Assembly: GCA_965113315.1 (NCBI GenBank) | Contig: OZ220364.1 | Source of the DNA: Podarcis vaucheri | Taxonomy: Eukaryota | Length of the DNA: 64,000 nucleotides | Strand: one strand, 5' to 3' | In this document: in pieces, positions 38,495-46,995 of the stretch | Layout: the number at the start of each line of letters is the position of its first letter | Numbering within the stretch: position 1 is the first letter of the stretch | Position numbers and translations under genes: made by a program | The notes under the pieces: generated by a model | Databases searched by the model: none | Told to the model about the DNA's origin: nothing | Seen by the model: the letters and a program-made list of their open reading frames with translations, nothing else

Positions 38495-38806
38495 CTGAAC
38501 TTGCTGGGGTTGCTGCACTTGTATTTGCTGCTCTTGCTGTGTTTGCTGCTGGACGCTTGTTGTAACTGGGCAAGCAAGTTCAAGCAAAGATCCAGCCACT
38601 TCTGTGCTATCTGTGTAGATGCAGTTGCCACCTTGCTGGTATACCATGGTGGTGGTAGCAGCCGTCTGCTGAAACTCCTGTAAGGCTTCAGGACCCTTGG
38701 AGGCAAGGGAGTCCAGGAATTCCTTCATCCTATGCTGTGGGATCGTTCGTGCTTTGACACGGATGTATTCTTCAAAGGAAATGGTGTTATCCAAAGAATT
38801 ATTCAT
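38495..38806 (-). CDS. QRICH1: Glutamine-rich protein 1, first coding exon ([20 protein letters not shown]...QQVQ); exon extends 5' to 38827
   Basis: ORF 38408..38806 matches QRICH1 N-terminus; acceptor ttttaag| at 38828, donor CAG|gtaa; 312 nt. Confidence 0.97.
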
Positions 38807-40005
38807 ATTGCAAGGTACTCAGGATTCCTTAAAAGAAACAAAGCAAGCCATTACAATTACACTCTAAGCCACTCTCTCTACATTTCTGATGTCTTTATCA
38901 ATAAGGTAGAAATATTATTCGGGTCATTCTGACTACTCACCACAGGTTAATTTATTGAAAAGTCATGCATAACAGACACATGCAGCTTTCTATTAAGATC
39001 CACTAATCTACAAACCCATTGTCTTTCAATGAGAACCTCAACTCAAGGCAGAGTCAAGCCCAATCCAAATCAGAGGATTAAAGTCTCCACTGATATATGG
39101 TACCCTCTGTAAAAACTGGGGAGTTCCCACTAGGCATGGAATAAAAGTTTTTGTTGTTGTTGTTTTTAAAAAAGGTTCCACAACTCCAACAGGCTACTGA
39201 TTCCCCTGAAATGTTTGTCTCCCTGTGCATGCAAAAAAGGTAACCATTCCTAGCAACATTGCTCAGCACCCAAAACCAAGTCACAATGGTGCAAGGACAG
39301 GAAAATCTAAAAGGAAGTGGGGTGGGGGGAGAGGGAAGATGAGGGAATCCCTCCAGAAGGTTCCCAATTTCCAAAAGGGAAACATTCAGGCTAATTCTGA
39401 TTCAGAGAATAAGTGGATCATTGCTCCAAGTAAAGAGACCTTCCTTTTTGTGGATGCTCTAACACATTGTTTCATGGCTTCAGTATCAACCACACACTAA
39501 GTATAAATGATTCATCAGGGCCTGGAAATTTTGCACAAGTGTACAATTTAATGCCTAAATGATCTCAGCTTCCATTAAACATGCACACCAAGTTTCTATT
39601 TAAAGTGTGGAAGGGTCAGCACCCAGCGAAATTTCAGGAACTGGGAGGGACTAGTAGGACCTTATTGTTTAGCCTAGTATGTATCCTAATGACTAAAATA
39701 ATTATGCAAAGCAAGGTAATCAATCTGCATAGCTCATACAGGCTAGAGTATTTTTTTTACTGTATACCCACTGAGCCTTGCATAAGATTCACTAAATCTG
39801 CAGGCTGCAAGGCCTCCTTCAATTGGTGGACAGGCCACAGTGATAAAGTTTTCATTAAGCAAAATTAATTGTTTTGGAAAGGCTTTGCCAAATCGATTGA
39901 CTTACAGTTGAACAACATAGGCCATTCAAAAAGTCCAAAGATTTTGGAAAATAAATTCAAAGTAAATATATATATACATTAGGTTGCCTAATATTTTTCA
40001 TATTA

Positions 40006-40255
40006 CAGTCGTACCTTTAAAGTTGAATGCCTTGAGAGTCAAACATTTTGGCTCCCAAACGATTCAAATTTGGAATTGAGTGTTCCAGTTTGTGAACGTT
40101 CTTTGGAACCCAAACGTCCAACACAGGTTCTGCGGCTTCCGACTGGCTGCAGGAGTTTCCTGCAGCCAACTGGAAGCTGCATGTTGGTTTCCAAACGTTT
40201 TGGAAGTCAAACGGACTTTCGGAATGGATTCCATTCGACTTCCAAGGTACGACGG
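40006..40255. mobile_element. Tigger-like MITE, second family (truncated sister at ~35185-35395)
   Basis: TA-CAGTCGTACCTT...AAGGTACGACGG-TA; internal GGCTGCAGGAG(C/T)TTCCTGCAGCC palindrome in both copies. Confidence 0.8.
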
Positions 40256-42714
40256 TATAAGTATGGAATTTATGTTTCCTTATGAAAAATATGAAATGGG
40301 GTGAAAAATGTATACAGAACACACACATCCCTGGTCAATACGCATAAACCCTGAGAAGCAGGATTTGTTTTTTAAGCAACATAAGCGTTGCTAATAATTC
40401 TGAACGCTTAACAGTACTGAGTGACAAGGCGTAGCAACATACAAACCAGTTTCTCACTCATAAAGCATTATACTGGAGTTTCCACTACCAAAGAAATTCT
40501 GCAATTAAAGAGAAATGAAAGCTCAAGAGAGACACCGCCACAGTTACTACACAGTGAGAAAGCCTGAGGTGAGAGAAAAGTCATCACTTCAATAATCACT
40601 GAAGTGAAGCCACCCAGCATCTAGGCATTTATTTGTTCACATTAATACATTTATTGTACAAAGGTAGCCCTGCATGCAGTCGTATCACCTCTAGAGCTGC
40701 TCACAAGACATATATTAACAATAATCACCTACAGTGGACTACTGTAGGACTCAAACACATGTCTCAGATTTCAGCTACCATTGAGACCAGAAGATGATGT
40801 CTGGGCCCTCTATCAAATTTCTTGTTTTTGAATAGTCAGGCAGATGTCTCTGGCCCTGGCTACATATTATATGGAGCACCATGAATGCTGCTGCCCCATG
40901 GTGGCTCCCTGCACTACTCTTGGTATCATCTGCAACTTCCATCTACATTATTAGGATGGAACATACCATGCCAGCAATGAATAACCAAATTGGGTCAAAT
41001 TGGCATCATGGTATAACTACATGATTCACTCTGTGAGGATGGAAATTGCAGTTATTAGCAATCGTCATGTGGCAGCAACCATCAGGAAGGCAGCAAATGC
41101 AGTACTCCATGTATAAATGAGGCCCCAACAATTATGTAGATTTTCAGGTGGGATCCTATGCAAATTATGAGAGTGATCTAATTTATATATTTTATTATAT
41201 ATAAAATAATACTCATTTTACCTGTATTTAGAAAGCAAAGCTAAAAACTTTGAAACTGCCACACTTGCACAATATTGTATCTGTAATTGGCACCCATTCA
41301 TTGTTGCTACTGAATTTATGGAAAATTTTCTGCAGAAAAGTAAAGCACTAGAAACTTTCCCACAGATCATGGGCATCAATATCACACCAAGCAAACCTAA
41401 AGGAATCAATTACATTTAACGTACATGAGGCCCAATTGCTACAAGAATAGTTGCAAACTTGCCATGCCAGATACATCATCAGATGCAGATGGATCCAAAA
41501 AGTAAGAGACCCAAGCCAAAAATGTAATTATGTTTTTAAAATAAGACCCATAAATTGACTGCCACTGTCACAGAATGTTTTTCAAATCAGGCCTATTTAA
41601 TAGTTAAAGTTTAGAGGGGCAGAATATACACATTGCCTAGAGAAGTCTTTATATTTAACTAGTAAATCTGATCTACTTTTTCTAGAAAGTTGTAAGTTAA
41701 ACATATTGCTCCCATATTTTAGCCACTTAAGTATTCAAATTAAGATGCTTAATAAAAAAGATCCCCACTTTTCCAATCAAGGTTCCAGGTGGCAAAAATG
41801 TTCTGGCTGTGCAAGGCAGAACTAATGATGCTATTCCCTTTGCTGCTGACCCAGTAAACACAATTCCCCAACAGCAAAGGAGATTAAATCTAACATTTTG
41901 ACACACCACTTTTTCCGGCAGAAAAGCATTTGGTGGCATTGGCTAGAATCAGCTGATTCTAGCCAAAGAAGTAGCCTTTTCAAATGCTTTGCTGTCACAG
42001 AATGGGGTAATAATTATCAGGTTTAATACTGGACCTCACACTGGAATAAAATTATACTCCAATTCCAAACATACTGCTAAGCCCCACTTACTCAAGGGAA
42101 TTTACATTTAATCAAGCTGCTAAGGATAGTCAGATTCTGGAAAAGTTACAAGAACAGTCTGTGTGTCTCCCCTGCCCACCGCCTTAATTTTGCAAATTTT
42201 AGGAGTAGCTAACAATGGAGACATATGGCTGGATTTGAGGAATTAACCATTCCTTCTTCCCATAAGTCCTAGGTGAAAACTGAAACCTGTATAATATCTA
42301 AGAGAGGTTCATTTATATGTCTACTACCTCCCACATTCCATTTAGGACTCTGACCAGATGCAGACAAAGTAGCTTCCCCAGTTAAATAGCCTGATAAACG
42401 CTATTTTGTGGGCATTTCGGTTGGCCCAATGGAAGGCAACATGGATTCTGGAACATTATGGCTATCAAGACACTGAAGGAGTCATCATTGTTTTCAAATC
42501 AGTGGATTTTGAAATGCAGACCCTTTTAGTTTGCCTCAATCTTATGTAAACGGATAAGATTCTGAGTTACTTAATAAAGTATTCTTACTTAATAAAGTAT
42601 TATTATAACATTGGGAAATATTCATGGGCCCCATTTTCTAGGGCTGATATGATTTCCACAAATATACTAGCTAGAGAATGTCATACAATATTCAAGAGCC
42701 TGCCTTTCAAAGTA

Positions 42715-42960
42715 CAGTGGTACCTCGGTTTAAGAAGAGTCCAGTTTAATAACAATTTGGTTTACAAACTCTGCAAAACCGGAAATAGTGTCTTGGTTTG
42801 GTTTGAGAACTTTACCTCTGTCTAAGAATGGAATCCGAATGGTGGAAGGGCACCAGCAGCGGGAGGCCTCATTAGGAAAAGCGTGCCTCGGTTTAAGAAC
42901 GGTTTTGGTTTAAGAACGGACTTCCGGAACGGATTAAGTTCATAAACCAAGGTACCACTG
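42715..42960. mobile_element. Tigger-like MITE
   Basis: TA-CAGTGGTACCTCGG...CCAAGGTACCACTG-TA. Confidence 0.85.
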
Positions 42961-45949: not shown

Positions 45950-46267
45950 TAACTGTCCTGTCAGAGGTATTGTACAAGGCTACACTCAACGGTCCACTGT
46001 AATGGACAGCACGAAGCGCTTTTAGGTACAGTATTTGTAAATATTGCAGGCTCCTAGACAAGGCCAGCACACCGAAAAGGCCCCGCCTTGCTCCGCCTCG
46101 CCTCCATTTATTCTAGCCTTCTGGCCAAGGGTGGAGATGAGCATCCTTGGTCGCACGAAACTGGCGCGCGAATGGCTAGGTGAAAAGGAGGAGGAGAAGA
46201 AGCAACGGCGGCGGCCGAAGGGGTTTGGGAAGAGTGAGGAAAATTGGCCACAGCCGTGGCAGCTCAC

Positions 46268-46356
46268 CCCGCCTCCCCAGGGTCTCTGCAGCACTAGGGC
46301 CCGCCGGCCTCATCCTGGAACTTCGCCTGCGACTGCTGCTGCACCCGAGTCGGCGC
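46268..46356 (-). other. QRICH1: QRICH1 candidate 89-nt 5'-UTR cassette exon with upstream ATG at 46313
   Basis: acceptor cttctccttcaaag|, donor GGG|gtgagc. Confidence 0.6.
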
Positions 46357-46909
46357 CTTTGAAGGAGAAGCGGCGCGAGCGCGCCCGCAGCAGCAAACCC
46401 AAGGCGCGCGCCCGGCCCCACAGGGCCCTGGTGGTGGACTTCCCAGCGCGCGAAACGCCGGGAACGCGCGCGCCTACTGCCGCCTCTGGAACCGGGGAGG
46501 GGGAGCTGGTGAAGGGAAGAGTCGGGAGCGCAAGGCGGGGCCGCGGGCACCGTGGAACGAACGACGCAAGGCCTCGAAGTCTGCGCGCCGCGGCCCGATC
46601 CCGCCCTACGAGTCTCCAATTCCAACACGCACGCAAAGAGGTCCTCTCTCTTTGCCCCCCCACCGCCCCCCCACCGCGGAACGCGCGCGCACGCGCTCCC
46701 CAGCGCCACACACACAACAGCCGGGCTCGCGGGAGCGCGCTTAGGCCCCGCTACCCCTCCCCCCCGCCGCCGCTATTCTTTTTCTTCTCCTCCTCCTCCA
46801 CCCCGCCCGGTCTGAGGCAGCTCCTCTTCTTCTTCACCAGCCCCCGCCCCCACTCCAGCCCTCCCGTCCGCCGCTCGGCTGTCAACGTCCCCGCCCAGCG
46901 CCGCCTCAC

Positions 46910-46995
46910 CCCGGCCCCTCTGCCGCCTCGCGCCGTCGCCACCTCAGGCCCCGCGTCTTTTTTCCCCTCACAGGTCCCTGGGCGCCATCTTACAT
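46910..46995 (-). other. QRICH1: QRICH1 non-coding exon 1 (5' end approximate), containing uORF MAPRDL* (46988-46968)
   Basis: YY1-type AAGATGGCG near the 5' end, CCAAT at 47010-47014, donor GG|GTGAGG at 46909. Confidence 0.75.

Follow-up and report, generated by a model that had tools for sequence, protein, structure and literature searches.

What decides how much QRICH1 protein is made from each of its mRNAs? The question is raised by the leader of this gene, which lies on the minus strand of a 64,000-nt stretch of Podarcis vaucheri DNA (assembly GCA_965113315.1, contig OZ220364.1; "the window" below). [quoted passage not shown] The gene is lacertid QRICH1: the peptide encoded by the exon at 38827-38495 shows 100% identity with QRICH1 of Podarcis, Zootoca and Lacerta (120 matches listed of 661). 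QRICH1 pushes prolonged endoplasmic reticulum (ER) stress toward cell death, and its loss-of-function variants underlie Ververi-Brady syndrome (PMC8459449), so that the dose of this protein matters. We favour, with somewhat more confidence than doubt, the reading that splicing sets a brake on QRICH1 dose. In this reading, an old uORF in exon 1 is combined with the uORFs of a different, 63-nt leader exon (exon B), which is likely optional and likely set by QKI/RBFOX-type factors, and whose inclusion would lower the protein made per mRNA.

For the splicing of the leader, 4 of 24 listed runs (Logan contigs; named X1, X6, X10 and X14) were aligned to 38300-46960. The runs come from related lizards that are a few percent diverged, and they are presumed to be RNA (18 of the 24 listed), while none is on record as RNA. 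Among the 62 joints found across the four contig sets, 15 are listed, and contigs drop rare forms. Besides, the splice sites of the intron preceding the first coding exon (498 acceptors, 468 donors and 5964 pseudo-exons of the form AG..GT with 40-250 nt) were ranked with approximate matrices. The features on which the reading depends are as follows.

38495..38827, minus strand: first coding exon of QRICH1, with a 21-nt leader, the main ATG at 38806, an in-frame Met27 codon at 38728 and a CARD-like region; spliced in X10
44351..44413, minus strand: exon B, a 63-nt leader exon missed by the first-pass annotation; joint to 38827 in X10 with GT-AG ends, acceptor edge in X1, rank 1 of 5964 pseudo-exons
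44398..44412, minus strand: uORF2, 4 codons inside exon B, with G at -3 if spliced from 46910 and T at +4
38799..44360, minus strand: uORF3, 12 codons across 44351>38827, with its ATG at 44360 (A at -3, G at +4) and its stop 8 nt into the coding sequence (CDS)

The 3' junction of exon B is seen in one of the four runs, where X10 record 8 has the first coding exon spliced to 44350-44379 with GT-AG ends, i.e. 44351>38827. At the other edge, the alignment of X1 record 5 begins exactly at 44413 after 30 unaligned letters and then continues into the intron; this fits an upstream exon, because a 30-letter overlap is expected of a 31-mer contig. It turned out that the donor (1 of 468), the acceptor (1 of 498) and their combination are the best of the whole intron. 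Exon B is thereby a spliced-in exon that lies wholly in the leader, and its inclusion adds two upstream AUGs (ATG 44412 and ATG 44360). In X14 the main contig (38493-39139) shows no splicing between 39139 and the first coding exon and is uninformative on the cassette; it may stem from pre-mRNA, from an internal start or from retention of the end of the intron. RNA folding of exon A, exon B and the end of exon 1 gave nothing beyond shuffled sequences (z -0.87, 0.70 and 0.03, respectively), and exon B is unstructured by this measure.

The sequence around exon B is constrained and is accompanied by putative elements for splicing regulators.

44192..44530, minus strand: stretch of constrained sequence that surrounds exon B; X6 shows 1 difference in 339 nt vs 114 in 4000 nt
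44270..44287, minus strand: putative QKI-type element in two parts (ACTAAY-N-TAAY); the donor of exon B is 64 nt upstream
38964..38984, minus strand: two TGCATG, putatively RBFOX-type, 140-160 nt before the first coding exon

The comparison for the constrained stretch is with the other seven listed X6 pieces, which gives a binomial P of 6e-4, or P = 0.005 after correction by a factor of eight for the listed X6 pieces only. The QKI-type element is the only one in the 8082-nt intron, and the minus strand of the window holds three. There are seven TGCATG in the intron, two of which are inside a repeat. This repeat lies at about 45735-45915 and resembles a miniature inverted-repeat transposable element; it is a long palindrome, nearly perfect, and its contig depth is very high. 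A high-copy repeat is inserted at 43375-43623, 730 nt downstream of exon B. It is a recent insertion polymorphism, missing in the contigs of relatives: X1 record 5, X6 record 26 and X10 record 12 all join across it. We also looked at three fish-like QRICH1 loci from metagenome contigs (L002, L003 and L004), of which L002 reaches the promoter. L002 and L003 share a strongly conserved non-coding block with TGCATG in the intron that precedes the first coding exon (approximately L002:920-1070 and L003:115-275); it does not match the lizard exon B and might serve in fish as a regulatory element or as an exon of the leader.

With exon B included, AUG 44360 lies 37 nt after the stop of uORF2 and 31 nt before the main AUG, and it opens an out-of-frame uORF over the main AUG on a real transcript; for exon A, no joint of this kind is among the 15 listed. 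Its frame is the one of the 24-codon open reading frame (ORF) that had been predicted through exon A. For 7138 random 63-nt windows of the intron, some overlapping uORF arises in 39.7% and a strong-context one in 4.7%, while a closed uORF followed by a strong-context overlapping uORF, as in exon B, arises in 1.0%. The 8-nt length of the overlap was also considered as a sign of selection and rejected: the overlap is at most 8 nt in any case, in the fish-like loci likewise, because the conserved first codons of the protein (M-N-N) supply the stop.

The upstream part of the leader contains the following features.

46968..46988, minus strand: uORF1, 6 codons, overlapping a YY1-type motif; read from the sequence, with mammalian and fish-like counterparts
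46990..46995, minus strand: candidate start-stop element, probably incidental; no ATG at that place in L002
47010..47014, minus strand: inverted CCAAT box, 26 nt before the AUG of uORF1; equivalent box in L002
46910, minus strand: last exonic base of the candidate exon 1 donor, followed by GT; rank 11 of 468 donors

Already known before, uORF1 is a genuine element that is both conserved and translated, the evidence for translation coming from mammals. The human QRICH1 uORF (MAPREL, 6 aa) is listed with 845 P-sites, 90.8% of them in frame (PMC10032668, supplement file 5); it is conserved among vertebrates, and mouse and rat translate it too (PMC10032668). The same 21-nt uORF is placed at nt 25-45 of NM_017730 (PMC4739776). 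The lizard likewise has the 6-codon uORF in exon 1, at 46988-46968 where the first-pass annotation had put it, and the peptide differs from the human one by one residue. In L002 the counterpart is MAPSEI, with the inverted CCAAT box 25 nt before its AUG. The CCAAT box is a putative NF-Y site, and the motif overlapping uORF1 is presumably one for YY1. The length of six codons is kept in human, lizard and L002 while codons 4-6 vary, which argues for some ORF-level constraint on uORF1. Sandmann et al. note that very short ORFs of the 5' untranslated region (UTR) can be conserved via overlapping elements (PMC10032668). A short 5' uORF, as expected of an ATF4-type leader, is provided by the sequence of uORF1, whose human, mouse and rat counterparts are translated. 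The start-stop ATGTAA at 46995-46990 is present in the letters as well; as a conserved part of the layout it failed in L002, and it was dropped from the mechanism for this reason. GT does follow 46910 directly, and no use of this donor appears among the 15 listed joints. The GC-rich first exon has little contig cover in most runs, and X1 and X6 are without cover on the first coding exon, which is evidence neither way.

In mammals, the leader of QRICH1 contains an optional exon. The 60-nt cassette of Qrich1 seen in mouse brain, located at chr9:108518767-108518826, has a percent spliced in of 72.73 in wild type against 47.4 in the Huntington model R6/1, verified by reverse transcription PCR; it is a target of RBFOX in crosslinking and immunoprecipitation, but was not validated in the triple knockout (PMC13067610). 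The reverse primer of that study matches the lizard first coding exon (18 of 21 at 38740). Since in the lizard this exon holds all of the first 104 codons, the mouse cassette should lie in the leader; for the forward primer, 46960-38300 offers no clear match (12 of 19). Inclusion changes are reported for human QRICH1 exon 2 (PMC9977177), and Qrich1 is given among QKI-regulated splicing targets (PMC6429586) and with a skipped-exon event (PMC10579071), the exon being unstated in both. Judged from position and length (3 nt apart), exon B is probably the orthologue of the mouse cassette. As far as the accessible parts of PMC13067610 and PMC9977177 go, the alternative exon is treated there purely as a splicing event, without uORF content or a translational role. 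We found no literature linking the QRICH1 cassette to uORFs, although You et al. 2021 and some supplements may do so.

The proposed brake would work as follows. When exon B is skipped, ribosomes leaking past uORF1 or re-initiating after it would find no further start but the main AUG, at 79 nt from the stop of uORF1. When exon B is included, AUG 44412 would come first for them and AUG 44360 next, and they would be diverted, since the frame of AUG 44360 leads past the main AUG. Relief under eIF2alpha phosphorylation would be partial at most. Cassette exons of the 5' UTR that add uORFs and lower translation are an established class, and inclusion of the leader exons of RBMXL1, ADIPOR1, DLG1 and ELK1 likewise adds uORFs with predicted lower translation (PMC13631847). 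Unlike in these genes, the uORF added in QRICH1 extends over the main AUG, and the gene concerned encodes a dosage-sensitive transcription factor linked to the integrated stress response (ISR); the effect here is a predicted one.

Several points weigh against a braking role of exon B. The joint 44351>38827 comes from a single contig, in one relative's run, its short side being 30 letters, and the runs supporting exon B are only presumed to be RNA. No joint skipping exon B occurs among the 15 listed. The statistics for exon B were chosen after the exon had been found, and blastn of exon B and its flanks against L002-L004 returned no homologue (best E 0.09). The mammalian exon may lack the AUGs or be non-orthologous. 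Finally, for QRICH1 the searched human ribosome-profiling tables list uORF1 but nothing that overlaps the main start; the supplements of PMC7530721 and PMC13010147 may list more.

One further feature is needed for weighing the alternatives.

46268..46356, minus strand: exon A, the 89-nt candidate with ATG 46313; unsupported; ranked 41st of 5964 pseudo-exons, its acceptor 38th of 498 and its donor 15th of 468

All that the first-pass annotation read from the letters is correct, including AG/46356-46268/GT with its 89 nt and ATG 46313, the acceptor 38827, the main ATG 38806 and the spliced 24-codon frame that ends at 38799, 8 nt into the CDS. That exon A is the cassette supplying the overlapping uORF is nevertheless very unlikely. 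Its sites are canonical, it is within the top 0.7% of pseudo-exons with scores in the range of real coding-exon sites, its frame would remain open for 45 codons to the same stop if it were spliced to exon B, and the bin 46103-46391 has low, unattributed contig cover in three of the four runs. However, 46910>46356, 46268>38827 and 46910>38827 are all absent among the 15 listed joints, its splice sites are weaker than those of exon B, and the mouse cassette has 60 nt rather than about 89. The overlap alone is at chance level, because an overlapping uORF arises from 2420 of the 5964 pseudo-exons (41%). The idea of an optional exon with an overlapping uORF thus moves to the 63-nt exon at 44413-44351: uORF1, the optional mammalian leader exon and a same-frame overlapping uORF stand, whereas the identity of the cassette and the conserved start-stop do not. 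Exon B might also be real with AUGs that are neutral or lizard-specific, uORF1 being conserved merely via the YY1/promoter overlap. The roughly 40% of random windows with some overlapping uORF would agree with this, as would the caution of Sandmann et al. on very short 5' UTR ORFs (PMC10032668), but uORF1 is translated in mammals and keeps its six codons despite the varying codons 4-6, and AUG 44360 has a strong context, so we regard such neutrality as quite improbable.

An ATF4-type switch at exon B deserves more credit but still seems unlikely. Here the included isoform would be repressed at rest and de-repressed via delayed re-initiation on eIF2alpha phosphorylation, and skipping would abolish the response. 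The layout of short uORF(s) followed by an overlapping one is present, as in the leaders of ATF4 and ATF5, where a short upstream ORF likewise precedes an out-of-frame uORF overlapping the CDS (PMC13631847, PMC4341466). A review based on You et al. 2021 also states that an inhibitory upstream ORF permits preferential translation of QRICH1 in the unfolded protein response (UPR), with induction in intestinal cells (PMC8459449). Unlike ATF4 and ATF5, the lizard QRICH1 has three uORFs, the overlapping one on a separate exon, with the inhibitory AUG 31 nt before the main one and with an overlap of 8 nt, which the conserved M-N-N codons force. In ATF4 the overlap and the AUG-to-AUG distance are several-fold longer, and the scanning distance of 31 nt looks short against that geometry. 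In HEK293T cells after 1 h of tunicamycin (one cell line, isoform mix unspecified), the log2 change in translation efficiency of human QRICH1 is -0.13 (rank 25 of 37 genes, the higher-count rows among 62 in one supplement part) or -0.01 (with 19 normaliser genes), whereas ATF4 rises about 6-fold (+2.63), DDIT3 by +2.01 and PPP1R15A by +1.48 (counts of PMC4341466); the flat result would fit the switch if those cells skip the exon. ATF4-type induction via exon B is doubtful because of the 31 nt between AUGs, the 8-nt overlap and the flat HEK293T response, and since no translational induction was seen in this one data set, we do not file the leader as ATF4-type. It is highly improbable that exon B acts mainly on mRNA stability, as a "poison" leader exon in which termination of uORF3 about 300 nt before the next junction triggers nonsense-mediated decay. 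The uORF3 stop at 38799 and the exon end at 38495 would allow it, and constrained flanks occur in regulated poison exons; on the other hand, the included form is retained in the main contig of X10, and the mouse cassette is in 73% of wild-type transcripts (PMC13067610).

The splicing-set brake on QRICH1 dose is the most likely reading. Splicing screens return the leader exon of QRICH1 repeatedly (in the Huntington mouse and on loss of cohesin/BRD4), and the literature examined assigns it no function; Qrich1 events with the exon unstated occur in tau mice and in the QKI knockout. The lizard sequence suggests a concrete role for this exon, as a translational brake. If this is true, QRICH1 protein would be tuned by switching the splicing of a single 60-nt exon, and splicing could be the source of differences between cell types in how stress induces QRICH1. 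More speculatively, and with a rather low probability, a QKI/RBFOX-controlled leader exon that adds an overlapping uORF may be amniote-wide, so that cell-type splicing would set both the QRICH1 amount and the ISR response. Where inclusion is lost, in Huntington and other disease models, basal QRICH1 would then be higher and cells would lean toward the terminal UPR; bypass of both close AUGs would lead to a start at Met27 and a CARD-truncated form.

For the protein itself, the first 104 codons are a single exon in the lizard, and residues 8-49 give a Pfam CARD match with E 1e-4, just below the cut-off. The start motif M-N-N-S and Met27 are kept in 120 of the 120 listed homologues (661 matches in total), among which no N-terminal extension was informative. 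The Met27 codon at 38728 has A at -3, and a start there would cut the CARD-like region. The remaining QRICH1 gene was placed by tblastn down to about 19555, and the leader region and exon B have one match each in G000. Downstream on the same strand, exons of the IMPDH family are located at 3985-9430; a UniRef model fusing QRICH1 and IMPDH (P0059) matches these exons and is probably an annotation artefact. A second GC-rich island at 51001-52000 (GC 0.63) is probably the promoter of the neighbouring gene.

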